A stretch of DNA of 64,000 nucleotides from contig JAGCPA010000077.1 of assembly GCA_017642445.1 (NCBI GenBank), positions 13,661-77,660 on the forward strand. The letters are read 5' to 3'. The DNA comes from Spirochaetia bacterium (lineage in GTDB: Bacteria; Spirochaetota; Spirochaetia; CADAEX01). Shown here piece after piece: positions 3,032 through 40,120 of this stretch (the stretch's first letter is position 1; each line of letters begins with the position of its first letter). Under the pieces are notes generated by a model. It was not told where the DNA came from. It did no database searches and saw only the letters and a program-made list of their open reading frames with translations. The translations under genes were made by a program, and so were the position numbers.

Positions 3032-3061
3032 ATTATACGCTTTTTGAGGAATATATGTCAA
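3032..3061 (-). promoter_or_regulatory. Near-consensus sigma70-type promoter for ilvBN
   Basis: The minus strand reads TTGACA, an 18-nt spacer, then TATAAT, about 40 nt upstream of ilvB ATG 2989. The leader is too short for a T-box or attenuator. Confidence 0.6.
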
Positions 3062-3082: not shown

Positions 3083-3436
3083 TTAGACTTGGGTTTTCTC
3101 TTTCAGATTCTCAAGAATTTTCCGTTTTTTCAGGGCATCTGCATAGACGGCGTTGGCCTCTGCCTTCTCTTTTTTTATAATCTCAAGCTGTTTTTCCAGC
3201 TCCAGCGCCTCTTCCTTGAGAGATGTGAGATGAGCCTGCAGAGGGGCAAGGCTCCCAGGAGTCTGGATGGAGCTTACAAAATCGGCATAGAGCTGTGACT
3301 GTTTTTTCTTTATTTTATCAAGGTCGTTCTGAAGCTGGTTGAGCCGGGCATCGATATCGGAAAGCTTTGCGGCGGCATACCGCTCATCCATGATTCGGAT
3401 CTCTAAAAGCTTTTCCAGCCGGAACTCTTTCTTCAT
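3083..3436 (-). CDS. fliJ: Flagellar/T3SS export chaperone-stalk protein FliJ-like (coiled coil)
   Basis: 117 aa and all-helical. The N-terminus FRLEKLLEIRIMDERYAAAKL is typical of FliJ. It sits immediately after fliI with a 4-nt overlap. Confidence 0.65.
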   Translation of the reverse strand: MKKEFRLEKLLEIRIMDERYAAAKLSDIDARLNQLQNDLDKIKKKQSQLYADFVSSIQTPGSLAPLQAHLTSLKEEALELEKQLEIIKKEKAEANAVYADALKKRKILENLKEKTQV

Positions 3437-4749
3437 CGGATGCCTGCTATGGACATAGCGTTATCCATGCTCTCCTGGAAGGAGGCCTTCTCCTTGAGAT
3501 CCTGGATAAGGAACCGGTCTATCATATCATGCTTCTCTATAGCAAGGTCTATGGCTCTGTTTGTGCCACGGTTGTACGCACCCACATTAATAAGATCCTC
3601 TGCATCGCGGTAGACAGCCATGTGATGCTTTATCACCTCGGCAGCCTTGAGCAGGTTGGCAGGAGCAACACGCACAGCGCTTCTGGAGACAGACTGAAGC
3701 ACATCCACAGCCGGATAGTGGCCTGCCTCGGAAAGTTTTCTCGAGAGGATTATATGGCCGTCCAGGAAGCCCTCTGCGCTGTCTGAGATAGGCTCGTCCC
3801 TGTCATCCCCTTCCACCAGCACAGTGAAGAAGCCTGTGAGGGTTCCCTTGTCTGAGTTCGCACACCGCTCAAGAAGCTTGGGCATCTCGGTGAATACCGA
3901 CGGCGGATAGCCTCTGGTCGCAGGAACCTCTCCGATAGAGAGACCTATCTCGCTCTGAGCCCTGGCAAAACGGGAAAGGGAATCGAAGAAAAGCATGACA
4001 TTCTTTCCCTGGTCCCTGAAATGCTCTGCCACAGTTACAGCAGTATAAGCGCCGCGGACACGGCAAACCGGGGATGTGTCAGAGGTTGATACAACCACAA
4101 CTGACTTGGCCAGCTTCTCCTCGCCAAGGTCGTTCCTTATGAACTCCCCCACCTCGCGGCCACGCTCGCCTACAAGCGCTATGACATTTATATCGGCCTG
4201 GGTGTTCCGGGCTATCATTCCTAAAAGTGTGGTCTTACCTGTACCTGCTGGAGAGAATATTCCAAGCCGCTGGCCAAGCCCTACTGTAAGGAGGGAATCT
4301 ATGGAGCGGACTCCCGTCTCCACGCTCTCCTGCACCATCTGGCGGTTAAGGATATCAGGCGGGGTGCCGAATACAGACTTTTTCTTTCCGAAGCCTATCG
4401 GCCCCTTGCCGTCCAACGGATTTCCCATGCTGTCTATTACGCGTCCCAACAGCGAGTTGGTCATAGGTATTCCGAGGCTGCGTCCTGTGGCCACCACCTG
4501 GCATCCCATCTGGATTCCCACAGCGCTGCCATAGGTTATTAGACGCACCTTGGAGCCGTCTATTGCAACAACCTCAGCCGGCACAGGGTTCTCTTTCTCG
4601 GGCAGATATATCTGGCACAGCTCTCCTACCATGGCCTGTGGCCCTATGCTCTCTATCATAAAGCCTGTAACCTTGGTCACCATGCCTGTGTAGCGGCAGG
4701 GCTGTGAATTCTCTATTATCCGGACAAAACGCTCAAGATCACTCTTCAT
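3433..4749 (-). CDS. fliI: Flagellum-specific/T3SS ATPase FliI
   Basis: F1/V1-like ATPase with Walker A SPAGTGKTTLLGMIAR and Walker B VMLFFDSLSRFARAQSEIG. I prefer ATG 4749 (MKSDLERF), which has AGGAG 9 nt upstream. The ORF-track start is 4794. Confidence 0.9.
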   Translation of the reverse strand: MKSDLERFVRIIENSQPCRYTGMVTKVTGFMIESIGPQAMVGELCQIYLPEKENPVPAEVVAIDGSKVRLITYGSAVGIQMGCQVVATGRSLGIPMTNSLLGRVIDSMGNPLDGKGPIGFGKKKSVFGTPPDILNRQMVQESVETGVRSIDSLLTVGLGQRLGIFSPAGTGKTTLLGMIARNTQADINVIALVGERGREVGEFIRNDLGEEKLAKSVVVVSTSDTSPVCRVRGAYTAVTVAEHFRDQGKNVMLFFDSLSRFARAQSEIGLSIGEVPATRGYPPSVFTEMPKLLERCANSDKGTLTGFFTVLVEGDDRDEPISDSAEGFLDGHIILSRKLSEAGHYPAVDVLQSVSRSAVRVAPANLLKAAEVIKHHMAVYRDAEDLINVGAYNRGTNRAIDLAIEKHDMIDRFLIQDLKEKASFQESMDNAMSIAGIR

Positions 4750-5398
4750 GCAGGCTGCTCCTGATAGAAGAAAGCTGGGTGGAAATCCTGGCATCTACGC
4801 CCCCTGTGGTGCTCTCCACCACACAGCCACCCTGCTCCACCGAATGGTCTTCGGCTATTTTTATAGATTCCACCTTGTCGAACATATTAAGAAGAAGGGA
4901 ACGGTATTCCCTTGCCACATCCATATCGGCCAGGTTCACACGGAGCACCACAGGACTCTTCTCCTTGAGGAGCCCAAGGGCATACTCGGCATTGCGCACC
5001 GCAATATCACGCTGCTTTGCACACGACGCCTTCACAACCTTTCCCGCAATCTCAACTGCCAGGTCAACGATATCGTGCTTGGCATTCTCAAGGATATTCC
5101 GCTTGCACTCATCGACATCGCGGGTTATGACCTCGAGCTGGCTTATAAGTCTGTTAACCTGGTCAAGCCCTTTCTCGAAGCCTTCCTTCTCCCCTTTTGC
5201 AAAGCCCTCTTTCTTTGCCTCTTCGTAGGCCTGGGTTCTGATTCTCTCGGCCTCGGACTTTGCCTCCTGACGGATCCGTGCGGCATCGCCGCTGGCTTTC
5301 TCCAGCTGCACCATAAGGTTTCTGCTCTCTGCCTGGACATCTATATGGGAAGCTCTTTCCAGCTCTTCCACATCTATGGCTTTGAATACATCTGTCAT
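4739..5398 (-). CDS. fliH: FliH-like ATPase regulator/peripheral stalk
   Basis: 219 aa with an E/K-rich coiled N-terminal half and a C-terminal FliH/SctL-like domain (VVLRVNLADMD...GGCVVESTTGGVDARI). It lies between fliG and fliI. Confidence 0.7.
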   Translation of the reverse strand: MTDVFKAIDVEELERASHIDVQAESRNLMVQLEKASGDAARIRQEAKSEAERIRTQAYEEAKKEGFAKGEKEGFEKGLDQVNRLISQLEVITRDVDECKRNILENAKHDIVDLAVEIAGKVVKASCAKQRDIAVRNAEYALGLLKEKSPVVLRVNLADMDVAREYRSLLLNMFDKVESIKIAEDHSVEQGGCVVESTTGGVDARISTQLSSIRSSLHEE

Positions 5399-6375
5399 TT
5401 AGGGCCTCCTGCTTTTCTGACGGCAGCCAGTATCTGGCGCTGGGACTCCTCTATCTCCTTGAGTCTTATAGGCTTGGAATCGGGCTGGGATAGAATCTGG
5501 GAACGTTCCGGATCAAGGTTTGCCAATACTTTCTCGCGTGCCTCGTAGCTTGCTGTCCTCAATGCTTTTGCTATGTCATCGGATGAGACACCTGCAAGGA
5601 CAGAGCACAGGATCTCATCATCTATCTTGACTAAATCATCAAACACAAGGATCTGGGATGCCAGTTCCTCTGAGAGTTTTGTGTTGCTCCGGCGGATATC
5701 GGAAAGGATGTCGGCACCTGTCTTCCTGTCCATCCGGTTCAGGATATTCATCATGCTCTCTATACCGCCAGCCTCCTTGTAGCCGGAAAGGTCAAAGAGG
5801 GCAAGCTTCTTCTCAAGCACTTTCTCCACGTTGCGCAGCATCTCGGGAGATGTCCTGTCCATGACTGCAATGCGCCGTGCCACATCGGACTGGATGCTTC
5901 TGGGCAGTGCCGAAAGGATTCTGGATGCGGCCTCGGGCTCAAGATATGCAAGAACCAGGGCAATAGTCTGGGGCTGCTCGAACTTGAGGAACGATACAAG
6001 GCGGTCGCTCTGCACACGCTTGACAAATTCAAACGGCTTCTTGTGGAGGAATACCGATATCTTCTGGATAATCTCGTCGGCCCGCTTCTCTCCGAAGGCC
6101 TTGGAGAGCAGTTTCCTGGCATAGTCCACTCCGCCTGTGGCAATGTAGTTCCGGGCTGTGGCCAGCTCTCTGAACTCGTAGAGCACCTGGGAGAGAGTGT
6201 TGGAATCCACCTTCTCGGTAGAGGCTATCTGATATGAGAGTATCTCCACATCCTGGGCATTAAGATGTCCGAAGACCTGTGCAGACGGCTCGCATCCGAG
6301 CGCCAGGAGGAATATGGCGGCTTTTTCTTTGCCTGAAAGCTTTTTTATGGCTGCAGCTTTCTTCAGTCTTGGCAT
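5395..6375 (-). CDS. fliG: Flagellar rotor/switch protein FliG-like
   Basis: 326 aa. FliG signatures span the N, middle and C domains (SGKEKAAIFLLALG, EQPQTIALVLAYLEPEAASRIL, GGIESMMNILN, LVFDDLVKIDD). The C-terminal torque-helix region is atypical (see findings). Confidence 0.85.
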   Translation of the reverse strand: MPRLKKAAAIKKLSGKEKAAIFLLALGCEPSAQVFGHLNAQDVEILSYQIASTEKVDSNTLSQVLYEFRELATARNYIATGGVDYARKLLSKAFGEKRADEIIQKISVFLHKKPFEFVKRVQSDRLVSFLKFEQPQTIALVLAYLEPEAASRILSALPRSIQSDVARRIAVMDRTSPEMLRNVEKVLEKKLALFDLSGYKEAGGIESMMNILNRMDRKTGADILSDIRRSNTKLSEELASQILVFDDLVKIDDEILCSVLAGVSSDDIAKALRTASYEAREKVLANLDPERSQILSQPDSKPIRLKEIEESQRQILAAVRKAGGPK

Positions 6376-6376
6376 A

Positions 6377-7321
6377 TCAATCCTCCGACAGCCAGGTTTT
6401 TACAAGGCGTGCAACCTCTTCCGGGTTCTGGGATGCCATGTTGCGCGCATCTTCCAGTATGGCCTCTTTCTTCTTCTTTCCGAAAATCAGGATAAGGATT
6501 ACGGCAAGCAGCACCACTGCCAGAGAGACAGCGGCTGCATATGCGATGTTGCGGCCTACAGGAAGCCTGTCAAAGATATCCTGCTCTGCCGGAACCTGTG
6601 TCAAAGGCTTTACTGCAGGGATGGCTGGGGAGGTGCCCATTCCTGCATAGTCCGAGAGAAGATTTCCGGCTGTGTCGCTGATAGTTATATTCTTGTCCTC
6701 AAGCCCTTCCACCGCAAACTTGACCAGCTTGATTATTCCCTGGATCTTCTTTGGGTTTGATACAATGTCAGAGCCTGGATGGGGGGTGATGATAATGGAG
6801 GCAGAGACATCCTTCTGGTCTTCGGTGAAAAGTGATTTTTCCGGCATAACCAGAGTTATTCTGGCCCGGTCTACATCGGCAAGGGCCTCGATATGCTGCT
6901 CAAGGCTCAGGCTGATTGCCCGCCGAAGGTTCACGTTGCGCTCGAAGTCGGTGGTGGTCCACCTGTCCATCTTGAACACATCCCATGGGGAGGCATTCTT
7001 CGGAACCAGGTCCTCTCTGACAAGCAGGGCAATCATCTTCTGGGCATCGCCCTTGCTCTGGAGATAGATCATTCCGTCGGAAATCTTGTGGGAAACTCCC
7101 TCCTGATCAAGACGGAGCGATATGGCGTTGAGCAGTGTGCTGTCTGCAATTTTTGCTGTGAACAGCGGAGTCATGAAAGATGTGGAGCCCGCTGAGCTTA
7201 TGAAGACAATAAGGGCAAAGGCAATTGCCAATATCAAGATAATCGAGACTTTCTGTGCCTGCCTAAGCTTTTTCCAGAATTGTCCTATACTGCTGAAAAA
7301 CTCCTTTATTTGTCCTTTCAT
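6377..7321 (-). CDS. fliF: Short FliF/SctJ-family ring protein (RBM1+RBM2 only, TM2 and FliG-binding tail retained)
   Basis: 314 aa. Layout is TM1 (~25-43), then the YscJ/FliF-type region (LVREDLVPKN..WDVF..DRWTTTDFERNVNLRRA..LE..I..L..V..A.I.LVMPEKSLF), TM2 (~259-280), and the C-terminal NPEEVARLVKTWLSED. Canonical FliF is ~530-570 aa. A strong SD (GGGAGGGG) precedes the start. Confidence 0.75.
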   Translation of the reverse strand: MKGQIKEFFSSIGQFWKKLRQAQKVSIILILAIAFALIVFISSAGSTSFMTPLFTAKIADSTLLNAISLRLDQEGVSHKISDGMIYLQSKGDAQKMIALLVREDLVPKNASPWDVFKMDRWTTTDFERNVNLRRAISLSLEQHIEALADVDRARITLVMPEKSLFTEDQKDVSASIIITPHPGSDIVSNPKKIQGIIKLVKFAVEGLEDKNITISDTAGNLLSDYAGMGTSPAIPAVKPLTQVPAEQDIFDRLPVGRNIAYAAAVSLAVVLLAVILILIFGKKKKEAILEDARNMASQNPEEVARLVKTWLSED

Positions 7322-7354
7322 AACCCCTCCCTGATCTAAAAGAACTTATATAAT

Positions 7355-8662
7355 CTACAAGATATATCTTGCCAGATCCTGATCCCCTAACACGCCGTTC
7401 AGCCTGTCGTCCACATACTGCGGCGTAACTGTTATAGTCTGTCCCTTGAGCTCCGGTGCTGCGAAGGAGACCTCCTCCAGAAGCAGCTCCATTATTGTAT
7501 GCAGCCGTCTTGCCCCGATGTTCTCGGAGCCTGCATTGAGCTCCTGTGCTATATATGCGATCCGTTTCACTGCCTCGTCGGTGAACTCAAGCTTGACATC
7601 TTCGGTCTCCATAAGAGCCTTGTACTGCTTTATAAGCGCGTTCTGAGGCTGTGTCAGAATCTTCTCGAACTCTGCTGCCTGCAGCGGCTCAAGCTCCACC
7701 CGAAGCGGGAACCGTCCCTGAAGCTCAGGGATAAGGTCCGAAGGCTTGCTCATGTGGAACGCACCTGCGGCAATGAAAAGGATGTGGGTTGTGTCCACCA
7801 TTCCGAACTTGGTGTTCACCTTGCACCCTTCAACTATAGGCAGGATATCCCGCTGGACTCCTTCTCTGGAGACATCTGCACCGCTGGTGTTCTGCCTTCC
7901 AGCCACCTTGTCGATCTCGTCTATGAATACGATGCCCATCTCCTGGGTCCGTGTCTTCGCAATCTCTGCAACCTTGTCGCTGTCTATCAGCTTGTCAATC
8001 TCTTCCTCTAGCAGAATCTCGCGGGCATGCTTCACTGTGGTGCGCCGTTTTTTCTTCTTGTTGCCCATTACTCCGGTTATGCTTCCGAAGTTGATGCCCA
8101 TATCCTCAAGGCCTGTGCCGGCAAAGATCTCCATGGGCTGGAAACCTGCTCTGGTCACATCTATCTCTATCTGGTGCTCCTCAAGCTCCCCGTCCCTGAG
8201 CTTATTACGGAACTTCTCGCGGAGCTGTTCCTCTTTGTTTCCCGGGAGCAGAAGATCAAGGAGCTGCTCCTCCACCCTTACCTTCGCATCCTCCATGACA
8301 GTGCTCCGCATCTCGGTCTTGACCATATTCACAGCTACTGCCATAAGATCGCGGATTATGGACTCAACATCGCGGCCCACATAGCCTACTTCGGTATATT
8401 TGGTAGCCTCCACTTTTACAAACGGAGCACCAGAGAGCTTTGAGAGGCGGCGGGCAATCTCGGTCTTTCCTACACCGGTTGAGCCGATCATGATGATATT
8501 CTTAGGAATAACCTCTTCCCGCAATGACTCGGGCAGCATCTTCCGCCGCACCCGGTTCCGCAGTGCCATGGCCACAGTGCGCTTCGCCTTGTCCTGGCCG
8601 ATTATATATTTATCAAGTTCCTCTACTATCTGCTTTGGAGTAAGCTTATCAAAATCAAGCAT
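7355..8662 (-). CDS. hslU: ATP-dependent protease ATPase subunit HslU
   Basis: TPKQIVEELDKYIIGQDKAKR, Walker A GSTGVGKTEIARRLS, and IVFIDEIDKV give a full-length HslU pattern. Confidence 0.95.
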   Translation of the reverse strand: MLDFDKLTPKQIVEELDKYIIGQDKAKRTVAMALRNRVRRKMLPESLREEVIPKNIIMIGSTGVGKTEIARRLSKLSGAPFVKVEATKYTEVGYVGRDVESIIRDLMAVAVNMVKTEMRSTVMEDAKVRVEEQLLDLLLPGNKEEQLREKFRNKLRDGELEEHQIEIDVTRAGFQPMEIFAGTGLEDMGINFGSITGVMGNKKKKRRTTVKHAREILLEEEIDKLIDSDKVAEIAKTRTQEMGIVFIDEIDKVAGRQNTSGADVSREGVQRDILPIVEGCKVNTKFGMVDTTHILFIAAGAFHMSKPSDLIPELQGRFPLRVELEPLQAAEFEKILTQPQNALIKQYKALMETEDVKLEFTDEAVKRIAYIAQELNAGSENIGARRLHTIMELLLEEVSFAAPELKGQTITVTPQYVDDRLNGVLGDQDLARYIL

Positions 8663-9195
8663 CAGAGTTCCTCCACAATAATATTGCTGTTTGTATAGAT
8701 GCAGATCTGTGATGCGATCTCAAGGGATGATTTTGCAATCTCGGCTGCGCTCATGGCAGAGCTTGAGCGCATGAAGGCCAGGGCTGCCGCATAGGCGTAG
8801 TTGCCGCCTGATCCTATGGCCAGGGCCTCCTCGTCGGGCTCCACTACATCTCCTGTGCCCGAGATAAGGAGAATCTTGTTTGCATCGGCAGCCAGAAGCA
8901 TCGCCTCCAGGCGGCGGAGGGCTCTGTCGGTCCTCCACTCCTTGGCCAGCTCCACTGCGGCCCGGGTCATGTCGCCGCCGAACTCCTTGAGCTTGCCCTC
9001 GAACTTCTCGAACAGGGTGAATGCATCGGCTGTGGCACCTGCAAAGCCTACAAGAATCTTGCCGTCATATATTTTCCGCACCTTCCGTGCGTGCCCTTTC
9101 ATCACAGTCTTATCCAGTGTAACCTGGCCGTCGCCGGCCATTGCAACCTTGCCATCCTTTTTTACTGCAAGGATTGTTGTTCCTCTAAATTCCAT
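8662..9195 (-). CDS. hslV: ATP-dependent protease subunit HslV
   Basis: [26 protein letters not shown] is the HslV N-terminal nucleophile region. ATG 9195 has GGAGGAG 3 nt upstream, whereas the ORF-track start is 9225. Confidence 0.95.
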
Positions 9196-10105
9196 TTTCT
9201 CCTCCTTTCTGCCCCAGCCTTCCATGAGGATGTGTAGTTCTGTGGATATCCTTAAGACGCCCTATTCCCACATGGGTGTAGATCTGGGTGGTGGAAAGCC
9301 CTGCATGGCCCAAAAGCTCCTGCACGGCCCGGATGTCGGCACCGCTTTCCAGAATATGGGTGGCAAAGGTGTGCCGGAATGTATGCAATGTCACATTCTT
9401 GTCGATATGTGCATTCATCTTGTACTGTCTTAAAATCCAGGTGGCACCGCGGGCTGTGAGCGGATTCCCCTTGTAATCTATGAAAAGGGTCTCTGTATCA
9501 GTCCCCTCTTTTGTCACCACCTGCTGCCGGAGCGGCAGATATGCCTTGAGTATCTCTGCAGTCTGTCTTCCGAAGAATACAAACCGCTGCTTGTTCCCTT
9601 TTCCAGTTATAAGCACCTGGCCAGACGCAAAATCAAGGTCTCTGATTTTGATTGAGAGAGCCTCTGAGATACGGCAGCCCGATGCGTACAGGAAGCTGAA
9701 GAGAGCCTCGTCCCGTGCACCCAGCATAGGATTGGAGGACTCCTTCTTGACAGCAAGCTCATCAACCCGCTCAAGCTCGCTTTTTGTCATATAGAGAGGG
9801 AGCTTCTTATCCACACGCTGTGACTTTACATAGTCGAACGGGTTGAACTCTGTCTCCTTCTCTCTGATCTTATAGTCATAGAATTTGCGGAGTGCCGAAA
9901 TCTTCCGGTTGATGCTCCGTGCATCAAATCCTTTCTTGGAAAGATGTGCCACATATCTCCTGCCGCTGTTTCTGTCAGGGTTTGAGACAGAATAACCCGA
10001 CTCCTCCATGAAGGAGATGAACTCCGCAATGTCGCCGCTGTATGCTCTTACAGTGGCTGGAGAGAGGTGCCGGATGTTCTCAAGATAGGAGATATACTGT
10101 TTCAA
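9185..10105 (-). CDS. xerC: Tyrosine recombinase XerC/CodV type
   Basis: Carries the phage-integrase catalytic motifs ([58 protein letters not shown]). It sits between topA and hslV, as codV does in Firmicutes. Confidence 0.85.
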
Positions 10106-16633: not shown

Positions 16634-17454
16634 CAGCCCTCCTTGACCTTATAAACAATCTTGCCACCTCTGAAATCAAGCTCATCGGTCTGCTTATCTA
16701 TTCCATTCTCCTGCATCACATCCAGGACAGTGAACATCTGCTGGAGCATTCCGTCGGTTATGTCCGAACTGGTGCGTATCCTGATGCTGCTGTTCGCCGG
16801 ATAGATGACTACATCAAAAGTCCCCTCTGACTTCTCTACAAATTTAATTTCGGATATCTGCTCGAAGAGTGTGCCTGAAGACTGCTTCACAGCAGAGAGC
16901 CTGGAGAGATACGGTATGAACATGCTTGGAAGCTGTGTGCCAAGCTTGAGATTCTGGAATGTGAGGCCGGAGATCACAGGAAGCTCATAGTCTGTCACCC
17001 CTTCCCCTATCTCGAAGATAACCCCTTCCCGGTCCAGTGTGACAGGAACAGTGATTCCATCCACCTCTATGAAAGTGATTGCAAAAGGCTCTCTTCCCTC
17101 TACAACTATCTTGATTGCCGATGGGAACGACTTCTCCACCTTGGCAGCCTGAATCAGATTGTTCTCCAGAAGACGCCGCTCAACCTCTGCGGCATCGATC
17201 GCAAAATAGCTCTCTCCACCGGTTATTCCGGCCAGCTGAAGTATCTCGGAAGAAGAAAGCGCCACGGAAGCCGGTGAATACACCTGGACCTTGTCAATCT
17301 TAAGGTTCGGTGAGATCAGAAGCATGAAGACAGCTTCCATGGACGCAAGACCAAGGATGAAGAGAAAAACAAAAAGGAGGATTTTTTTGTTTACCGTTCT
17401 GCTCTTATGTTTAACCTGGAAAGAATAACCAGGATAAATATCAATACTACTCAT
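16633..17454 (-). CDS. ftsQ: Cell division protein FtsQ/DivIB (POTRA)
   Basis: A single N-terminal TM followed by a POTRA-like region (IDKVQVYSPASVALSSSEILQLAGI). It lies between ftsW and ftsA. ATG 17454 has GAGGAG 6 nt upstream. Confidence 0.7.
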   Translation of the reverse strand: MSSIDIYPGYSFQVKHKSRTVNKKILLFVFLFILGLASMEAVFMLLISPNLKIDKVQVYSPASVALSSSEILQLAGITGGESYFAIDAAEVERRLLENNLIQAAKVEKSFPSAIKIVVEGREPFAITFIEVDGITVPVTLDREGVIFEIGEGVTDYELPVISGLTFQNLKLGTQLPSMFIPYLSRLSAVKQSSGTLFEQISEIKFVEKSEGTFDVVIYPANSSIRIRTSSDITDGMLQQMFTVLDVMQENGIDKQTDELDFRGGKIVYKVKEG

Positions 17455-18565
17455 AGTAATCTCCTCTGTCAGTACCCCGTGACACATTCAGCAGAAAACC
17501 GCACATTATCATAGTCACCAGCATGGAAGTTCCACCCTGAGAGAAGAATGGCATGGTAATTCCGGTAGTAGGGATCAGCTCTGCAACAACTGCGGTGTTA
17601 ACCAGCATCTGGAAGAAGATACTGGTTGTAATTCCAAAAGCCACATACGACTTGAATCTGTCGGTGGCTGTCCATGCAATGTAATAACCCTTGAAAGCCA
17701 GGAACGCGAAAAGGAGGATGATTATGATGACACCCACAAATCCCAGCTCCTCGCCCACAATGGCAAAGATAAAGTCTGATTTGGCCTCGGGCAGGCTTCC
17801 CATCTTATAGCTTCCGCTTCCTATTCCACGGCCGAATATACCGCCCGCAAGCAGCGCCTCCTTGGCCTTGAGGATCTGATAGCTGCTTCCTTCGGCGTCT
17901 GTGTTTCCCGACATGTGTGAAAGAAGACGGCTCAGACGGTACGGCTCCATGAGTATGAAAAGGAAGAACAGAAGTCCGATCCCGACACCCAGCAGGAACA
18001 GCATCCTGATGCGGAATTTAGAGACAAAAAGCATAGTGGCGCAGAGGCCCATTATAAATATGGTTGTGGACAGGTCGCTCTGCAGCCATACAATCTGAAT
18101 TATGGCCAATATAACGGTGAATACCGATGTGGAATAATTCTTCTTTCTCCCCTCTTCCACCCTTACAAAGTCGGATGCAAGATAGAGGACCAGGACTATC
18201 TTATAGAACTCTGACGGCTGGAGCGAAAGGGCACCGATACGGATCCAGCGCGAAGCACCGTTCACATCGCCGTACAGCGGAGGAAGAAGATTAAGCACAA
18301 ATACAATAATCAGGAACAGCTTGTTCCACCGGCGGAAGAAATCCATCGGCATATAGGCCACAAATATTGCAAGTATGGATCCCATGCAGAACATAAGGGC
18401 CTGACGTGATATGAAGTAGGTGAAAGGTTTTCCTGTGTTTACTGCGTCCGGATACGATGCAGAGAACAGCATAGCCATACCGCTGCCTGCCAGGAGCAGG
18501 ATCACTGCCAGCAGCATTGTGTCAAAAGAGTTGCCACGCTGTCTTTCCATCAAGAAACCGTCCAT
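17447..18565 (-). CDS. ftsW: SEDS-family peptidoglycan glycosyltransferase FtsW/RodA type
   Basis: Polytopic membrane protein with SEDS motifs (RWIRIGALSLQPSEFYKI, PEAKSDFIFAIVGEELGF, TGITMPFFSQGGTSM). Confidence 0.85.
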   Translation of the reverse strand: MDGFLMERQRGNSFDTMLLAVILLLAGSGMAMLFSASYPDAVNTGKPFTYFISRQALMFCMGSILAIFVAYMPMDFFRRWNKLFLIIVFVLNLLPPLYGDVNGASRWIRIGALSLQPSEFYKIVLVLYLASDFVRVEEGRKKNYSTSVFTVILAIIQIVWLQSDLSTTIFIMGLCATMLFVSKFRIRMLFLLGVGIGLLFFLFILMEPYRLSRLLSHMSGNTDAEGSSYQILKAKEALLAGGIFGRGIGSGSYKMGSLPEAKSDFIFAIVGEELGFVGVIIIILLFAFLAFKGYYIAWTATDRFKSYVAFGITTSIFFQMLVNTAVVAELIPTTGITMPFFSQGGTSMLVTMIMCGFLLNVSRGTDRGDYYE

Positions 18566-18578
18566 AAGTCTCCTTTCC

Positions 18579-19661
18579 TCACTGCAGTTTCAATGTGGAG
18601 AGGGCTACCACCACAAGCAGTCCTCCTAAAATCCAGAACCGGGTCACCACCCGGGTCTCCTTCCATCCCTTCTTCTCAAAATGATGATGGATAGGTGTCA
18701 TAAGGAACACTCTCTTTCCGACATGGTCGGGGCTGTGTTTCTCTGTATATTTGAAATACCCCACCTGAATGATCACCGACAGCGCCTCGATCACAAATAT
18801 GCCGCCGATCAGGATAAGGAGGATCTCCTTCTTGAGGAGAAGTGCCATGAGCCCGATTATTCCGCCTAAAGAAAGGCTTCCTGTGTCGCCCATGAAAACT
18901 TCTGCAGGATGGCAGTTGAACCAGAGGAATCCGATGGATGCCCCTATAAGGGCCAGGCTGAGCACTGCCAGCTCACTGCAGCCTGACATGAATGGAATAT
19001 TAAGATATGCGGCGAAGTCTGCACGGCCTGTGATATAAGCAAGGATTGCAAACCCTATTGCCACCAGGAACACAAGCCCTATCGCAAGGCCGTCCAGGCC
19101 GTCGGTCAGATTCACTGCGTTGGAAGCTCCAACCAGGATGATTATGCCGAACGGAATGTAGAACCAGCCGAGGTCGCATACCGGATATTTGTTGAACGGG
19201 ATATAGAGCATTGTGGTGTTCTCGCCGCGGTTCAGATAAATCATTACAACTATGGCGGCAGAGATTAAGATCTGTCCCATCATCTTGAGCCGTGGAGAGA
19301 GCCCTTCGGAGTTCTTACGGCTTATCTTGAGCCAGTCGTCTGCAAAGCCGACAGAGCCGAAGCCAAGGATTGCGAAGAGCGAGAGCCATGTGTACCAGTT
19401 CCTCAGGTCCTGCCACAGAAGGACAGAGATGACAATCGCAAAGATGATGAGCATACCGCCCATGGTTGGGGTTCCCTCTTTGATCAGATGGGTCTGCGGA
19501 CCGTCGTCCCGGACTTCCTGGCCCAGCTTTTTACGTCTGAGCCACCTGATGAACCAGGGTCCGAAAAGGAGAGAGAGGATCAGTGCAGTTACAGCTGCAT
19601 AGGATGCTCTGAAGGTGATGTATTTAAATATGTTTATCTGGGAAGCTAACTCTTTTAACAC
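18579..19661 (-). CDS. mraY: Phospho-N-acetylmuramoyl-pentapeptide transferase
   Basis: Carries the MraY motifs (KEGTPTMGG, NAVNLTDGLDGLA, FMGDTGSLSLGG, PIHHHFE). Confidence 0.95.
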   Translation of the reverse strand: MLKELASQINIFKYITFRASYAAVTALILSLLFGPWFIRWLRRKKLGQEVRDDGPQTHLIKEGTPTMGGMLIIFAIVISVLLWQDLRNWYTWLSLFAILGFGSVGFADDWLKISRKNSEGLSPRLKMMGQILISAAIVVMIYLNRGENTTMLYIPFNKYPVCDLGWFYIPFGIIILVGASNAVNLTDGLDGLAIGLVFLVAIGFAILAYITGRADFAAYLNIPFMSGCSELAVLSLALIGASIGFLWFNCHPAEVFMGDTGSLSLGGIIGLMALLLKKEILLILIGGIFVIEALSVIIQVGYFKYTEKHSPDHVGKRVFLMTPIHHHFEKKGWKETRVVTRFWILGGLLVVVALSTLKLQ

Positions 19662-19662
19662 T

Positions 19663-21057
19663 TCATTTACCCCTGCTCTTTAGTTTTTCCACAATCCGTT
19701 CCATAGCCATGCCTCTGGAGCCCTTTACCACAACCAGGTCTCCCGGCCTGACAAAATCGGCAACAGCCTTTTCCAGCGCCTCGTACTCAGGGCTCCAGAA
19801 AGGGCTCTTTCCCGCATCTATAAGTGCATCATAGGCAGCTTTCATCTCGTCTCCGAAAAGGAAGATGCCTGCCGCATCCGAATAAGAGAGCTTGCGCCCT
19901 ATCTTTGCATGTATGCTGTCAGACTCAGCTCCCTGCTCAAGGAGAGAGCCCAGCACAAACACCACCCGGCTCACGGAAGCGGCGGCCTCGGATGCGAAGT
20001 CCACCACTGCCATAACTGCCTCCAGGTTTGCGTTGTAGCAGTCGCACAGAATCTCTATGCCGCCGGCCTTATACAGTTCTCCCCGGCCGAACATAGTGCT
20101 GGCCCCTTCCAGAGCCTCTTTTATCTGCGCATCTGTTGCCCCGAAATAGCGCCCTACCGCTGCGGCCGCCATTGCGTTCTGGAAGTTATATTTTCCCATG
20201 AGCGGGAAATGTATCTTCTCTTTCCCAAGTGTGAACTCTGAGCCTTCTGTCCCCTTAAGCTCAAAGCCCTCTGCCATGGAGCAGCCATAGGTAAAGTACT
20301 GCCGCTCCTCTCCTACCTGATGCTGCAGGAAGTCGGCGTAATCGTCGTTCTCGTTCACAAAGCCGGCCTCGAGCGACGGATTCTCGGAGAATATCTTTCC
20401 CTTCTCGAATGCTATGCTGTCCTGGGAGCCCAGAATTCCTATATGGGCAGTGCCGATGTTGGTCACAACACCAACCTGCGGATGGAGAACGCCAACCAGG
20501 GCATCCATCTCTCCCCTGTGGTTTATACCCATCTCGAACACGCCGAACTTGTGATCGCTGCGGATGGAGAACATGGAAAGAGGAAGGCCTATCTCGGAGT
20601 TGAGGTTACCTTTGGAGCATACAGTACTGCCAAGCTTTGCGAGGATGGCTGCTGTCAGCTCCTTGGTGGTGGTCTTGCCGCTCGATCCTGTTATGCCGAC
20701 CATCTTGACCGAAGGGAACTTGTCGCGGTAGAACCGGGCCAGGGCCTGGAGAGCTGCAAGGGAATCCTTGACAAGCAGAATGTGACATCTGCCGGACTCA
20801 ATGGTTTTATTTATGTCAGGAGTAAGGTACTCCACAACACACATAGCAGCACCCTTGTCTGCGGCAGAGGGGACAAAGAGGTGGCCGTCGGTCTGTTCCC
20901 CCTTCAATGCGAAGAAGATGGAACCAGGACCGGCCATCCTTGAGTCTGTGCATGCACCTGTAAAATATGTCCCCTCCCCAGAAGACAGCAACTGTCCGCC
21001 AGTTGCCTTAACTATTTCATCTACGGAAAGAGCTAGTTCATTCTTTCCTCTCTGCAT
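19663..21057 (-). CDS. murF: UDP-MurNAc-tripeptide--D-Ala-D-Ala ligase
   Basis: Mur ligase with VGITGSSGKTTTKE and FEMGINHRGEM. Its position upstream of mraY fits murF. Confidence 0.85.
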   Translation of the reverse strand: MQRGKNELALSVDEIVKATGGQLLSSGEGTYFTGACTDSRMAGPGSIFFALKGEQTDGHLFVPSAADKGAAMCVVEYLTPDINKTIESGRCHILLVKDSLAALQALARFYRDKFPSVKMVGITGSSGKTTTKELTAAILAKLGSTVCSKGNLNSEIGLPLSMFSIRSDHKFGVFEMGINHRGEMDALVGVLHPQVGVVTNIGTAHIGILGSQDSIAFEKGKIFSENPSLEAGFVNENDDYADFLQHQVGEERQYFTYGCSMAEGFELKGTEGSEFTLGKEKIHFPLMGKYNFQNAMAAAAVGRYFGATDAQIKEALEGASTMFGRGELYKAGGIEILCDCYNANLEAVMAVVDFASEAAASVSRVVFVLGSLLEQGAESDSIHAKIGRKLSYSDAAGIFLFGDEMKAAYDALIDAGKSPFWSPEYEALEKAVADFVRPGDLVVVKGSRGMAMERIVEKLKSRGK

Positions 21058-21346
21058 CCGATTCTATCTGACTCCTTGTATCAATAATGATAGTCTGCCC
21101 CACACTGGTGTTGGACAGCTTCATTGTCTCCTTAACCTCTTTGACATGCTGCGGTGAGCTGTAGGCTGAAAGAGAAGTAAGCTCCTGCTTGTTCTTCTCG
21201 AACCACTTCTCCTGGGTGTTCTGGTACTCGTTGACCTCGGCCTGAAGCCGCTCATACTTATAACCCTGGTAGATATTAAGGGCAAACAGCCCCATGATTG
21301 CTATGACAAGAACTATTACAGTAAAACTTCCCAACTTTCCTTTCAT
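21038..21346 (-). CDS. ftsL: FtsL-like bitopic coiled-coil division protein
   Basis: 102 aa with an N-terminal TM (FTVIVLVIAIMGLFALNIY) followed by a coiled coil. It occupies the canonical slot after rsmH. The call rests on position and architecture only. Confidence 0.5.
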   Translation of the reverse strand: MKGKLGSFTVIVLVIAIMGLFALNIYQGYKYERLQAEVNEYQNTQEKWFEKNKQELTSLSAYSSPQHVKEVKETMKLSNTSVGQTIIIDTRSQIESDAERKE

Positions 21347-22284
21347 ACAGCCACCTTTTCTGCCACCCGTAACTTTGAGCTGCGGGATGCAGCATTCTCC
21401 GATATCTCAGCCTCGGAGGGAGCTACCGGTTTCTTGGTGATTATATTCACCACCCGGTGATTTCTGCCGCAGGTGCACCGTGGTGCAGAGTCTGGACAGA
21501 TACAATCTTTCTCTTTATCCCGGAAGAAATTCTTTACAATCCTGTCCTCCAGGGAATGGAATGTTATGACAGCTATCCTGCCGCCAGGAACCAGCACCTC
21601 GAGGGCCTTTTCCAGAGCCTCCGGCAGCCGCTCCAGCTCGCCGTTCACGGCGATACGCAGCGCCTGGAAGGTGCGTGTCGCAGGATGAATCTTGCCGTGC
21701 CGGTACCCTTCAGGCACTGCGTGGTAGACTACGTCTGCCAGCTGGGCGGCGGTGGTTATAGGCTTTTCGGCCCGCGCCTCCACTATTGCCCTGGCGATGC
21801 GCCTGGAATAACGCTCTTCCCCATAGTTGTAGATGATGTCGGCCAGGCGCTCTGCCGGATAGTTGTTGACCATATCGGCGGCAGAGACTACCAGGTCGTC
21901 ACCAAGCTCCATGCTCAGAGGCTCTTCCTTGCGGAAAGAGAACCCCCGGCCCGATTTCTCGTAGTGGTATGTGGAAATTCCCAGGTCGAACAGGATCTTG
22001 TCCGGCCGTGGGGATCTGGCGGAATAGTCTGCAAAGAAACGGTTGAACCATGTGTTGCAGAACTGCACCCTCCCCTTGAAAGGGGCAAGACGCTCCTCTG
22101 CAACCTTGAGTATATGATCATCTGCATCCAGGCAGATAAGCTTTATATCGGGATAAGCGGAAAGAAGAGCCTCGGAATGGCCCCCTTCTCCGGTGGTGCA
22201 GTCTATGAACAGTTCGCCTGGCCTTGAGGGTTTTAAATAGGAGAGAACCTCATTTTTAAGTACTGAATAGTGTACCACTTCCAT
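21343..22284 (-). CDS. rsmH: 16S rRNA (cytosine1402-N4)-methyltransferase
   Basis: HYSVLKNEVLSYL...DCTTGEGGHSE...DLGISTYH...ITFHSLEDRIVK is the full RsmH/MraW pattern. Confidence 0.95.
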   Translation of the reverse strand: MEVVHYSVLKNEVLSYLKPSRPGELFIDCTTGEGGHSEALLSAYPDIKLICLDADDHILKVAEERLAPFKGRVQFCNTWFNRFFADYSARSPRPDKILFDLGISTYHYEKSGRGFSFRKEEPLSMELGDDLVVSAADMVNNYPAERLADIIYNYGEERYSRRIARAIVEARAEKPITTAAQLADVVYHAVPEGYRHGKIHPATRTFQALRIAVNGELERLPEALEKALEVLVPGGRIAVITFHSLEDRIVKNFFRDKEKDCICPDSAPRCTCGRNHRVVNIITKKPVAPSEAEISENAASRSSKLRVAEKVAV

Positions 22285-27433: not shown

Positions 27434-28210
27434 TTGTCAAATTTCCAACTTTTTTCTCCAAAGTCAAATCAAAATGAAGATTTCATGTTCCAATTAACCA
27501 AAGATGAAACAGAAATACTATCGAGGTCAAAAATTTTGACCTCGATAATGCAGACAGAAGGCATGAGAGGTGGCCGCGTATATCTCCCACATGCTTTTAC
27601 AGAACAGGGCATCTATATGCTTATGACGGTTCTAAAGGGAGAATTGGCAACTAGGCAAAGCATTGCTTTAGTCCGACTATTCAAGCAGATGCGCCACTAC
27701 TTTGCCGAAAATGCTGGAGTAATCAGCAGATTATCTTCCACAGAAACAAAATTGATTGAGCACGATCAAAAAATTAACACTCTTTTCACCCTCATGAACA
27801 AATATAAGATTGAGGATAAACAGGGTGTATTTGTCCAGGGGCAGATATTCGATGCATACATTGCTTTTCAAAATATAATTCAAAAAGCCCAGAAAGAAAT
27901 TATACTGATTGACAATTATATTGACCTGACTGTGCTGGAAAGGCTCTCCAAGAAGAATCCAAATGTGCAGGTTATCATTTACACTCAGCCCAACACTCAA
28001 ATATCAAATATTGATATAAACAAGTTCAATACCCAATACCCTACTCTAACCATAAAGCATACAAAAAAAATGCATGACCGCTTCCTGATAATTGACAACG
28101 CCGAGATTTATTTCATCGGAGCATCTGTAAAAGATTTAGGGAAGAAATGCTTTGCATTTATGCAACTTGAAGATGCACAGTGGATTAGAACAGTGCTCAA
28201 TGCTTTATAA
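27434..28210 (+). CDS. ORF6N-family protein lacking the N-terminal part of the ORF6N/KilA-N-like domain, with a C-terminal HDRFLIID...GAS (PLD-like) region
   Basis: NEDFMFQLTKDE...GRVYLPHAFTEQGIYMLMTVLKGELATRQSIALVRLF matches the distal half of ORF6N domains. The frame opens only at 27419. The start is uncertain, either TTG 27434 or ATG 27485. Confidence 0.6.
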   Translation: MSNFQLFSPKSNQNEDFMFQLTKDETEILSRSKILTSIMQTEGMRGGRVYLPHAFTEQGIYMLMTVLKGELATRQSIALVRLFKQMRHYFAENAGVISRLSSTETKLIEHDQKINTLFTLMNKYKIEDKQGVFVQGQIFDAYIAFQNIIQKAQKEIILIDNYIDLTVLERLSKKNPNVQVIIYTQPNTQISNIDINKFNTQYPTLTIKHTKKMHDRFLIIDNAEIYFIGASVKDLGKKCFAFMQLEDAQWIRTVLNAL

Positions 28211-28322
28211 TCACCACTCGATATAGGGCACGCCCAGCTGCTCCTCAAGCCACAGCGCTATCTCGCCCGCTATGTTCTCCAGCTTGGTATCCATGGCCAA
28301 AGTATACCACAGAAATAAAACA

Positions 28323-28351
28323 TTGACATCTCAAACCATGACAATTATATT
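28323..28351 (+). promoter_or_regulatory. Sigma70-type promoter for the RiPP precursor gene
   Basis: TTGACA, a 17-nt spacer, then TATATT. An AGGAG SD lies 7 nt before ATG 28372. Confidence 0.55.
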
Positions 28352-28371
28352 TACTATATAAGGAGATAAAT

Positions 28372-28608
28372 ATGCCAATCGATAAGACAAAAATAACAAA
28401 AGAGATGCTTGAGAAAGCAGCAAAGTGCAAGACTGCTGATGAACTGATTGCTCTGGCCAAGTCCGAAGGCGTTGACCTTACAAAAAATGAAGCTGTGGCT
28501 TATCTTGAAGAACTCCAGAATGTGGAACTGGATGAAAAGGCCCTGGATAAGGTAGCTGGCGGTGGCTGTTATCCAGATTGTCCAAAAGATTATTGCTTTG
28601 AAAATTGA
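28372..28608 (+). CDS. Nif11-like-leader RiPP/bacteriocin precursor with a Gly-Gly motif and a 13-aa three-Cys core
   Basis: 78 aa. The leader ITKEMLEKAAKCKTADELIALAKSEGVDLTKNEAVAYLEEL...ELDEKALDKVAGG fits the Nif11-type leader pattern. The core is (G)CYPDCPKDYCFEN. Confidence 0.7.
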   Translation: MPIDKTKITKEMLEKAAKCKTADELIALAKSEGVDLTKNEAVAYLEELQNVELDEKALDKVAGGGCYPDCPKDYCFEN

Positions 28609-28667
28609 TGCTTGACAGATAAGCAATTAAAGTCTCTTTTACTATTTATAACTGATTATGCGTTATA

Positions 28668-28693
28668 AAGCCCCTTAATCGGGGCTTTTTTTA
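28668..28693 (+). terminator. Rho-independent terminator after the RiPP gene
   Basis: AAGCCCC, loop ttaatc, GGGGCTT, followed by a T-run. Confidence 0.7.
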
Positions 28694-28696
28694 TTT

Positions 28697-28723
28697 CCTG
28701 TAGCATTATTTGACACACCCAGG
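28697..28723 (+). repeat. Left copy of an inverted repeat / promoter-like element
   Basis: CCTGTAGCATTATTTGACACACCCAGG. Its reverse complement matches 32421-32447 with a 16-nt perfect core (TCAAATAATGCTACAG) plus flanking matches. Confidence 0.6.
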
Positions 28724-28751
28724 CTGTAAAATGACTGCAGGAGGACAGTAT

Positions 28752-28868
28752 ATGGAGATAAGTTTCACCCTTACCCTGACAGATAACAGCATGGTAGCCT
28801 GTGTCGTCGGCCTTTCAGTCATATTCTTGATCGTATTCGGGTTTAAGGCCTTACGAGAAACGAAATAA
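28752..28868 (+). CDS. 38-aa single-pass membrane peptide (unannotated small ORF)
   Basis: My own translation gives MEISFTLTLTDNSMVACVVGLSVIFLIVFGFKALRETK. A consensus AGGAGG SD lies 7 nt upstream. The ORF is too short for the ORF track. Confidence 0.45.
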   Translation: MEISFTLTLTDNSMVACVVGLSVIFLIVFGFKALRETK

Positions 28869-28904
28869 AGTTTTAGCAGAGAGGAATGCGGAAAGAATTA
28901 TTAA

Positions 28905-29105
28905 TTATAAAAGTCTTTCCATTGCGTCATTTTCATCGACAAACACAGTCTGCTCCTCGCCGCAACATATGGTATGAACTTCATAATTAATATCAGGGAA
29001 CCCAGCGCCTGCAAAATTTACATATTCAACTTTTGCATTATGCACACATTGCTCTTTATCACAATACCAATAGATAGTATCCCCTGCTCTGAACTTTGTC
29101 ATCAT
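28905..29105 (-). CDS. 66-aa Cys-containing protein of unknown function, translationally coupled to the DUF2075 gene
   Basis: An ATGA overlap (29102-29105) joins it to the upstream gene. Its AT-rich composition matches the partner gene. I recognise no family for it. Confidence 0.55.
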   Translation of the reverse strand: MMTKFRAGDTIYWYCDKEQCVHNAKVEYVNFAGAGFPDINYEVHTICCGEEQTVFVDENDAMERLL

Positions 29106-31150: not shown

Positions 31151-31208
31151 GTTAATATTTTATTCCATTTATTGAAAAAAAACCACCAAAAAATTATACT
31201 TCTCCCAT

Positions 31209-31595
31209 ATGAAGATCATCCATGTAGTAGCAGCCATCATTATCAAGGACCACAAGCTCTTTGCCACCCAGCGGGGGTACGGCGAGTTCAAGGACGGCTG
31301 GGAGTTTCCCGGTGGCAAGGTGGAGCCTGGTGAGACTCCCCAGGATGCCCTAAAAAGGGAGATCCGGGAAGAACTGGCCACCGAGATAGAGGTGGGCGAC
31401 TACATCAGTACCATCGAATACGACTACCCCACTTTCCACCTCTCCATGGAATGCTATGCCTGCTCAATAATTTCCGGCAGGTTGGAACTTCTGGAGCACG
31501 AGAACGCAGCCTGGCTCTCAAAAGAGACTTTGCGTACAGTCTCTTGGCTCCCCGCCGACTTAAGTATTCTAGATAAAGTGGAAAAATTGCTTTAA
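31209..31595 (+). CDS. NUDIX hydrolase, MutT/NudG-like
   Basis: The Nudix box is GGKVEPGETPQDALKREIREELATEI. The protein is 128 aa. Confidence 0.9.
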   Translation: MKIIHVVAAIIIKDHKLFATQRGYGEFKDGWEFPGGKVEPGETPQDALKREIREELATEIEVGDYISTIEYDYPTFHLSMECYACSIISGRLELLEHENAAWLSKETLRTVSWLPADLSILDKVEKLL

Positions 31596-39898: not shown

Positions 39899-39970
39899 CA
39901 TCTCCTACAGGAATCGAACCTGTGTTGACGGGATGAAAACCCGTTGTCCTAACCCCTAGACGAAGGAGAC
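39899..39970 (-). tRNA. tRNA-Glu (anticodon UUC)
   Basis: The reverse complement is GTCTCCTTCGTCTAGGGGTTAGGACAACGGGTTTTCATCCCGTCAACACAGGTTCGATTCCTGTAGGAGATG. It folds as a cloverleaf and aligns with canonical tRNA-Glu. The anticodon loop is TTTTCAT. Confidence 0.9.
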
Positions 39971-39976
39971 GCGTCT

Positions 39977-40049
39977 TGAGCTGCAATGGATTCGAACCAT
40001 TGACCCACGCCTTAAAAGGGCGTTGCTCTACCAGCTGAGCTAGCAGCCC
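39977..40049 (-). tRNA. tRNA-Lys (anticodon UUU)
   Basis: The reverse complement is GGGCTGCTAGCTCAGCTGGTAGAGCAACGCCCTTTTAAGGCGTGGGTCAATGGTTCGAATCCATTGCAGCTCA. The anticodon loop is CTTTTAA. Confidence 0.9.
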
Positions 40050-40120
40050 AAAACAATAAATGCAACGACAAAAATCTATCAAGAAAGAGCGATAATGTCA
40101 ACTATTGCATCTGTTTTAAA

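Follow-up and report, generated by a model that had tools for sequence, protein, structure and literature searches.

Can FliF, the protein of the flagellar membrane-supramembrane (MS) ring, give up the part that surrounds the rod and still be kept as a functional protein? Ring-building motif 3 (RBM3) of FliF, which forms the S-ring and beta-collar and encloses the proximal rod, is what sets the MS ring apart from the SctJ ring of injectisomes. Losing this domain is presumed to have been one of the steps by which the injectisome originated, and we know of no living intermediate of that step that was available before. The question is raised here by a 64-kb stretch of the genome of a Spirochaetia bacterium (GenBank assembly GCA_017642445.1, contig JAGCPA010000077.1, positions 13,661 to 77,660 of the forward strand), hereafter the window, to which all statements on this genome refer. 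A fliF gene coding for only 314 aa, here called mini-fliF, is located at 6377..7321 on the minus strand of the window. Its product is likely to be a functional FliF orthologue trimmed to the plan of SctJ, which would form the inner-membrane ring of a rod-less flagellar type III export core.

The mini-fliF open reading frame (ORF) starts with ATG and is preceded by a strong ribosome-binding site (RBS), GGGAGGGG, 5 nt before the start. The RBS lies in the 33-nt spacer between hslU and fliF (7322..7354, minus strand), in which a promoter scan found nothing. The encoded protein begins with a Lys/Arg-rich cytoplasmic segment, followed by a first transmembrane helix (TM1; residues 25-43, 7193..7249), the periplasmic RBM1-RBM2 region (residues 50-223, 6653..7174), a variable Pro/Ala-rich linker of 36 aa (residues 223-258, 6548..6655; SDYAGMGTSPAIPAVKPLTQVPAEQDIFDRLPVGRN, with 5 Pro and 4 Ala), a second transmembrane helix (TM2; residues 259-280, 6482..6547) and a cytoplasmic tail (residues 281-314, 6380..6481), all on the minus strand. 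Kyte-Doolittle hydropathy peaks only at residues ~19-51 and ~255-285, bracketing TM1 and TM2, both of which are bordered by Lys/Arg-rich segments on the cytoplasmic side. AlphaFold2 (AF2) also places helices at residues 21-43 and from residue 257. The tail, ...NPEEVARLVKTWLSED, aligns with residues 535-566 of a 569-aa FliF (PDB 12dr) and with residues 531-558 of Salmonella FliF, and is by this alignment a putative FliG-binding segment. The features and coordinates read from the sequence in the initial annotation, including those of the linker, proved to be correct throughout.

Profile searches agree with this layout. Pfam finds a single domain in mini-FliF, YscJ_FliF (PF01514; residues 50-223, E 4e-38), and YscJ_FliF_C (PF08345), which corresponds to RBM3 and the collar, gives no match even at E<=1, in residues 223-258 or elsewhere, as the initial annotation expected. 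With 199 bits, TIGR00206 (the NCBIfam equivalog for fliF) exceeds its cutoff of 129.75 while covering only positions 4-222 of its 555, and TIGR02544 (SctJ), with 36.5 bits, falls far short of the 161.95 required for family membership. Alignment to 23 canonical relatives shows that mini-FliF has lost ~250 residues between RBM2 and TM2 as well as most of the cytoplasmic linker, with the deletion boundary after the end of RBM2 (...GNLLSDYAG, ~residue 229) and before a short pre-TM2 segment, so that the 36-aa linker stands in place of the ~250 aa of RBM3 and collar. A tblastn search of the window with a relative's RBM3/collar segment found no remnant of them in any frame. The AF2 monomer, built from a 41-sequence alignment, shows alpha/beta folds for RBM1 (~50-102) and RBM2 (~125-216) at a predicted local distance difference test score (pLDDT) of ~80 and disorder at residues 226-256 (pLDDT <50). 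When this model was used in Foldseek, FliF RBM2 was matched at a TM-score of 0.9 with a root-mean-square deviation of ~1 A, FliF RBM1-2 was matched as well, and EscJ, PrgK and MxiJ were matched over ~170 columns across both domains. Profiles, alignment, model and structural matches thus all bear out the topology first proposed for this protein, namely an SctJ-like arrangement that keeps RBM1-RBM2 and a FliG-docking tail and has no RBM3 or collar.

Where such a gene comes from is suggested by its neighbourhood. The window has the order ftsA-ftsZ-xerC-dprA-topA-xerC-hslV-hslU-fliF-fliG-fliH-fliI-fliJ, followed by ilvBN. When one genome of each GTDB species was scanned, 30 related loci were recovered, and these were annotated by BLAST with the window proteins. 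In 23 of the 30 the order is canonical, dprA-topA-xerC-hslV-hslU-flgB-flgC-fliE-fliF-fliG-fliH-fliI-fliJ, and the site of the 33-nt spacer is occupied by a 1.35-kb gap after hslU that holds flgB, flgC and fliE. Proteins of these 23 loci have full lengths (FliF 565-577 aa, FliG ~350, FliH 302-313, FliI ~445 and FliJ ~150). The nearest canonical genome, OY759746.1 (loci L016 and L044), carries its flagellar genes in one contiguous super-operon, hslU-flgB-flgC-fliE-fliF-fliG-fliH-fliI-fliJ-x-fliK-flgD-flgE-flbD-motA-motB-fliL-fliM-fliY-fliOPQR-flhB(384)-flhA-flhF-flhG-x-fliA-...-cheA. A short FliF directly after hslU is found in seven of the 30 species. Five of these are ruminant-gut metagenome-assembled genomes (MAGs) from yak, sheep, goat, buffalo and cattle, with a FliF of 314 aa that is 89-96% identical (clade 1), and two are further MAGs with a FliF of 311-312 aa that is 56-59% identical (clade 2). 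By tblastn, flgB, flgC and fliE have no match at the locus or anywhere in the 64-kb window, which confirms the absence noted in the initial annotation and extends it beyond the locus. The hslV-hslU pair (7355..9225, minus strand), the synteny anchor upstream of fliF, is probably co-transcribed with it. Synteny indicates that mini-fliF descends from a spirochaete hslVU-flgB-flgC-fliE-fliF-fliG-fliH-fliI-fliJ operon from which the rod genes were precisely deleted.

The short gene recurs in many assemblies and is conserved. A database search returned ~45 protein clusters of 314-315 aa, 82-100% identical, from independent ENA, JGI, Logan and NCBI assemblies, with the same boundaries and neighbours on contigs of up to 659 kb. 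Pairwise ratios of nonsynonymous to synonymous substitution rates (dN/dS, or omega; Nei-Gojobori), calculated among six clade 1 genomes at dS ~0.5-0.95, are 0.073 for FliF, 0.082 for FliG, 0.089 for FliH, 0.067 for FliI and 0.157 for FliJ, and those of the housekeeping neighbours are 0.035 for HslU, 0.048 for TopA, 0.050 for IlvB and 0.095 for XerC. Within mini-FliF the tail is most constrained (0.026), RBM1-2 gives 0.035, and the linker with TM2 gives 0.19. Because the length is the same across assemblies and species and dN/dS is low, mini-FliF is judged to be maintained by selection and to be neither a pseudogene nor an artefact, both of which were rejected as explanations on these grounds. 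The initial annotation had allowed for a longer true gene hidden by misassembly; the ~45 clusters and the seven GTDB species share one architecture. A profile search of 1.84 billion cluster representatives was also made, and among the best 150 matches, which were viewed, a single representative covers the full mini-FliF profile (distant cases such as Chlamydia rank lower). Those other short matches that were read turned out to be fragments, to carry frameshifts, or to have RBM2 duplicated while TM2 and the tail are absent. Two matches of the last kind, P0241 (328 aa) and P0369 (306 aa), probably represent chimeric assemblies or fragments and not true mini-FliFs.

The order in which parts were lost can be read from a third reduced lineage, L004 (GCA_024402405.1). 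In a neighbour-joining tree of TopA, HslV and HslU (1300 columns), L004 branches outside clades 2 and 1, as (L004,(clade 2, clade 1)), and the three together are sister to the canonical MAGs. L004 (10001-12449) codes for a FliF of 470 aa in which RBM3 is kept and the collar insert is deleted. It is also without flgB, flgC and fliE, and its fliF is followed by genes for a FliG of 221 aa and a FliK_C remnant and then by thiI and unrelated genes. From this distribution on the tree, loss of the rod is common to all three reduced lineages and loss of RBM3 to clades 1 and 2, and L004 itself would represent a different, more decayed end state.

Not only the rod has disappeared. FlgB, FlgC, FliE, FlgD, FlgE, FlbD, MotA, MotB, FliL, FlhG and CheA of OY759746.1 were used as tblastn queries, and neither the window nor any of the reduced loci, ~150 kb of reduced-lineage sequence in all, gave a match. 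Of FliY, tblastn of the reduced loci finds only a SpoA-domain match inside a FliM-like protein. This protein is without the N-terminal LSQxEIDxLL motif that binds phosphorylated CheY, and the ruler region of FliK is gone in the reduced lineages. FliG of the window (326 aa; 5395..6375, minus strand) has its N, M and C domains by Pfam and NCBIfam. Alignment shows that the equivalents of E. coli R281, D288 and D289 in the torque helix are replaced in both clades and that two residues are deleted. Window FliG has also lost its last ~15 residues, and keeps the FliF-binding N domain, the FliM-binding E(H/Q)PQ...R motif and the GG hinge. At a matched HslU/TopA divergence of ~80%, FliG identity is 95-96% between canonical loci (L016 versus L017 and L030) and 47% between the window and the clade 2 locus L014. 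FliH, which is 219 aa in the window (4739..5398, minus strand; profiles and synteny) against 302-313 aa in canonical loci, gives 74-77% and 39% in the same comparison, whereas RBM1-2 of FliF gives 66-72% and 66%. These values suggest that the rotor and the ATPase adaptor were freed from old constraints and then re-stabilised, and that the ring module never lost its own.

The remaining genes of the window's fli operon encode the export ATPase and FliJ. The longest fliI ORF (3433..4794, minus strand; profiles) is 453 aa, and gene calls on the related contigs L001-L003 begin 15 codons downstream of its start. FliI has the P-loop core (GTGKT), Walker B, the GERGREV motif with the catalytic Glu and the Arg finger, and is in clade 1 apparently catalytically competent. 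FliJ (117 aa; 3083..3436, minus strand) is matched by TIGR02473 at E 1e-9, below the cutoff, and weakly by Pfam FliJ, and is syntenic. Between fliJ and ilvB, a perfect sigma-70 consensus, TTGACA-18-TATAAT (12/12), is located at 3032-3061 on the minus strand; it is probably the ilvBN promoter and would mark the end of the fli operon.

Genes of an export gate are found in the relatives. In clade 2 (L014 and L015) they belong to the same operon, fliF312-fliG-fliH-fliI'-fliK_C-only-fliM-like-fliO-fliP-fliQ-fliR-flhB-flhA-flhF-fliA. FliI' is a 104-aa remnant consisting only of the N-terminal beta-barrel (L014 12518-12832; L015 4285-4590), and the ATPase domain seems dispensable for this system. The FliM-like protein has 323 aa with FliM and one SpoA domain, and full-length FlhA (673 aa) is followed by flhF and a FliA/WhiG sigma factor. 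When clade 2 FlhA was used as a query, ~100 clusters of 675-686 aa, 49-52% identical and labelled 'Spirochaetia bacterium', were returned. One of them, P0227, lies on JAFSOR010000023.1 (MAG RGIG3334), the same 127,937-bp contig that carries a mini-fliF (L013) ~65 kb away, and two more that were viewed in context belong to the same second locus. This clade 1 locus (L039 4109-13833 on JAFSOR010000023.1; also L040-L042) encodes FtsK, a FliG_M-like protein of 103 aa, a weak sigma-70-like protein of 298 aa, a FliK_C-only protein, a FliM-like protein of 321 aa, FliO, FliP, FliQ, FliR, FlhB of 243 aa, FlhA of 678 aa, FlhF of 329 aa and FliA (WhiG) of 265 aa. Its genes show an omega of 0.07-0.22 between two species; FliP is 91% identical between species, and FlhA keeps its full cytoplasmic domain.

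FlhB is shortened in both clades, to 238 aa in clade 2 and 243 aa in clade 1 (L039 9268-9999; L014 16594-17310; L015 8343-9068), and whereas canonical FlhB (L044) has 384 aa with NPTH, the short forms keep the transmembrane domain and end just before the NPTH autocleavage/substrate-switch domain. This C-terminal part, FlhB_C, is the normal partner of the FliK C-terminal domain. Although FlhB_C is gone, all three reduced lineages keep orthologues of a small protein made up of the FliK C-terminal (T3S4/Flg_hook) domain alone (L039 5692-6024; L014 12878-13282; L004 12126-12449), with a W-L-(N/K)-x-x-x-P motif that is conserved at the C-terminus. In front of ftsK, which heads the clade 1 second locus, a candidate sigma-28-type promoter, CTAAA-N16-GCCGATAT/G, matches the consensus ~20 nt upstream of the RBS (L039 1732-1757; L040 and L041 1768-1793). 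With fliA at the other end of the locus, one may suspect an autoregulated sigma-28 operon to which the cell-division gene ftsK belongs. A sigma-28 promoter scan of the window gave one match, which is at chance level, and no candidate regulon member there.

In the assembly proposed here, mini-FliF would run from a cytoplasmic N-terminus through TM1, RBM1, RBM2, a flexible linker and TM2 to a short cytoplasmic tail that docks the N domain of FliG. The Foldseek matches suggest that RBM1-RBM2 would form a ring around a gate of FliPQR, the FlhB transmembrane domain and FlhA, like RBM2 in Salmonella and SctJ in injectisomes. The tail would hold FliG as a static, non-torque-generating adaptor, FliG_M would bind the SctQ-like FliM-like protein, which would in turn dock FliH-FliI-FliJ, and FlhA would power export. 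The S-ring and beta-collar may have been lost after deletion of flgB, flgC and fliE, and without collar and rod the gate would lead straight into the periplasm, which is in any case the destination of flagellar substrates in spirochaetes. Ring formation without RBM3, association with the gate and protein export are predictions from sequence comparison. That the ring no longer houses a rod, as the initial annotation proposed, is supported, since the rod genes are precisely deleted at the same syntenic position in each of the three reduced lineages, L004 has lost the collar alone, and purifying selection acts on the gate of an apparatus from which hook, stator, FliN/Y, FlhB_C and the torque residues of FliG have been lost. 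A bolder reading, which we put forward tentatively and hold to be possible rather than probable, is that these gut Spirochaetia run a flagellum-derived, rod-less type III exporter of non-flagellar cargo into the periplasm, in a recent and independent replay of the injectisome's first step of which sister lineages preserve intermediates (the 470-aa FliF and the ATPase-less variant).

Several observations weigh against this proposed export core. Neither fliPQR nor flhAB was detected in the window by tblastn with clade 2 proteins, and the clade 1 flhA locus (L039-L041) has no blastn match to it. A second locus in the window's genome, expected ~65 kb upstream of fliF as in RGIG3334, is extrapolated from one congeneric MAG contig and the abundant matching FlhA clusters. 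FlhB_C is normally required for substrate docking and is missing here. The module can also decay: L004 has lost most of the flagellar system, and in clade 2 the FliI ATPase domain is lost and FliJ is absent, with FliH kept. The AF2 monomer reaches an overall pLDDT of 68.8, which is moderate confidence. An RBM1-RBM2 construct of Salmonella FliF is monomeric and needs RBM3 to oligomerise (PMC8786727), so ring formation by mini-FliF may need the gate, FliG or changed interfaces. By analogy with SctJ, whose assembly depends on its partners, assembly of mini-FliF probably depends on the gate and/or FliG.

The chief rival explanation is a repurposed scaffold or regulator, in which FliF, FliG, the FliM-like protein and the gate would serve as a polar or division landmark or as a sigma-28 (FliA) checkpoint, with little or no cargo. 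MS-ring and rotor assembly does signal to FlgSR in Campylobacter. Retention of FlhF, a polar landmark GTPase, and of FliA/WhiG sigma-28, the promoter candidate upstream of ftsK, the loss of the docking domain FlhB_C and the dispensable ATPase of clade 2 would all suit such a role, although the promoter is a consensus match in close relatives and not independent evidence. We nevertheless regard this rival as unlikely, since selection on a whole gate of FliP, FliQ, FliR and FlhA, together with an apparently competent FliI in clade 1, exceeds what a landmark needs. Much less probable is that fliF to fliJ are decaying leftovers in a non-motile lineage on its way to total loss. Cultured Sphaerochaeta are indeed without any flagellar genes (PMC3372971), L004 retains only its 470-aa FliF, a 221-aa FliG and the FliK_C remnant, neither the FliI ATPase domain nor FliJ is left in clade 2, and divergence of FliG and FliH has been much more rapid than in motile relatives. 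For a neutral relic at this divergence, an omega close to 1 and frameshifts would be expected, whereas the ORFs are intact and of the same length in seven species and ~45 clusters, and their dN/dS of 0.07-0.16 at dS ~0.6-0.95 is in the range of hslU, topA and ilvB. Constraint peaks exactly at the RBMs and the FliG-binding tail, and the second locus is also under purifying selection. Decay is thus already largely refuted by dN/dS.

A working flagellum, in which rod, hook, filament and stator genes lie elsewhere and the short FliF is merely an unusual MS ring of a motile spirochaete, is more improbable still. In spirochaetes, flagellar genes are indeed spread over several clusters (PMC3372971), and the absence of axial genes holds for the loci read and not for whole genomes, a limit that also counts against a rod-less export core. 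Against motility, the excision is precise at two conserved operon positions, with no copies in the ~150 kb of reduced-lineage sequence, the S-ring and collar that hold FliE and FlgB are missing, the torque-helix charges and two residues of FliG are lost, and FlhB_C, FliN/Y, FlhG, FliL, the FliK ruler and the CheY-binding motif of FliM are gone from the loci read. In addition, the division and cell wall (dcw) cluster of the window, which is without ftsI between mraW and the Mur ligase, echoes the non-spiral Sphaerochaeta that are without penicillin-binding proteins (PBPs; PMC3372971). Hardly credible, finally, is an assembly or gene-calling artefact, in which a full-length gene would have been reduced to a 314-aa ORF by a collapsed or chimeric assembly. 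Some other short FliFs in databases are fragments or chimeras, and no support of this kind was found for mini-FliF itself, whose ORF, boundaries and neighbours are the same in ENA, JGI, Logan and NCBI assemblies and which has no RBM3 remnant in any frame of the window. A rod-less flagellar export core with mini-FliF as its ring is therefore preferred to all of these explanations.

Further features of the window lie outside the fli operon. Its dcw cluster (17447-22284, minus strand) has the order mraW, a 285-nt gap, Mur ligase, mraY, ftsW, ftsQ, ftsA and ftsZ, and no ftsI/PBP gene was found between mraW and the Mur ligase. A low-GC island at 28000-32000 (0.37-0.40 against ~0.51 for the window) contains a gene for a Schlafen-group-3-like helicase of 682 aa (29102-31150, minus strand) and is possibly horizontally acquired or defence-related; GC content dips a second time at ~46-50 kb. 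Three tRNA genes are clustered at 39899-40206 (minus strand). They are the only Rfam matches in the window, in which the scan found no rRNA.

As the preferred reading has it, loss of RBM3 is seen here in nature under purifying selection, coupled to loss of rod, hook, stators, FliN/Y, the FlhB switch domain and the FliG torque residues, and sister lineages show earlier and later stages of the reduction. The reduced loci offer a handle on the role of RBM3, on the minimal flagellar export core, of which the ATPase domain seems dispensable in one clade, on whether RBM1-RBM2 can build a ring without RBM3, which fails in Salmonella, and on the uses of a flagellar type III secretion system after motility has been lost. 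Flagellum loss in non-spiral spirochaetes would then not be all-or-nothing, unlike the picture from cultured Sphaerochaeta.

Compared with canonical FliF (the 569-aa spirochaete-type protein of PDB 12dr; Salmonella 6SCN and 7BK0), mini-FliF is orthologous by synteny and best matches. TM1 and RBM1-RBM2 align residue for residue with PDB 12dr (query 7-229 to chain 7-230, E 6e-65), and TM2, the C-terminal FliG-binding helices and the adjoining downstream fliG are shared as well. In contrast, RBM3/S-ring and beta-collar (PF08345, ~250 aa), most of the cytoplasmic linker and the adjoining flgB, flgC and fliE are all absent. On this evidence mini-FliF would be unable to build the 33/34-mer S-ring or to enclose a rod; it is FliF by descent, but fails one defining feature of FliF, the RBM3/collar. 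Buchnera, a non-motile aphid endosymbiont, keeps some of its flagellar genes, chiefly those of the export apparatus and basal body, and presumably uses them for export. Unlike the reduced Spirochaetia loci, it retains rod and hook genes and a full-length FliF. The cultured non-spiral spirochaetes Sphaerochaeta and Parasphaerochaeta are reported to be without every flagellar gene (PMC3372971), whereas the present lineage, also of the Spirochaetia, keeps a selected flagellar core of ~14 genes.

The initial annotation knew of no described class of such short FliF proteins. This needs to be modified in one respect, since a short FliF of ~330 aa, a FliF-FliG_M fusion, is known from the non-flagellated Chlamydiaceae (Bergeron 2016, PMC4768692), but its architecture differs from that of mini-FliF. 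The two are alike in their length (~310-330 aa), in having two transmembrane helices and two RBM-like domains without a SpoIIIAG-like RBM3, and in the few flagellar export genes kept. In chlamydial FliF, however, RBM1 is absent, only RBM2 being recognisable, and the cytoplasmic end is a fused FliG_M-like domain, whereas mini-FliF has canonical RBM1 and RBM2, a normal FliG_N-binding tail and a separate three-domain FliG of 326 aa. In the papers searched, neither this reduced spirochaete system nor any RBM3-less FliF other than that of Chlamydia is described, which is not proof of novelty.

The other close parallel is SctJ (EscJ, 1YJ7; PrgK; MxiJ), which has the same periplasmic arrangement of membrane anchor, RBM1, RBM2, linker and C-terminal transmembrane helix. 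Its injectisome partners are analogous too, SctRSTUV corresponding to FliPQR/FlhB/FlhA, SctQ to the FliM-like protein and SctL/N/O to FliH/I/J. However, SctJ is a lipoprotein, whereas mini-FliF begins with a cytoplasmic segment and the TM1 helix and is of FliF-type sequence; it is without a lipobox because the whole protein contains no Cys. No SctD, secretin SctC or needle genes are encoded in the two loci read of the reduced lineages. Injectisomes are without FliG, whereas mini-FliF keeps a FliG-docking tail and a separate FliG. The architecture of mini-FliF arose independently of SctJ and recently, inside the Spirochaetia.

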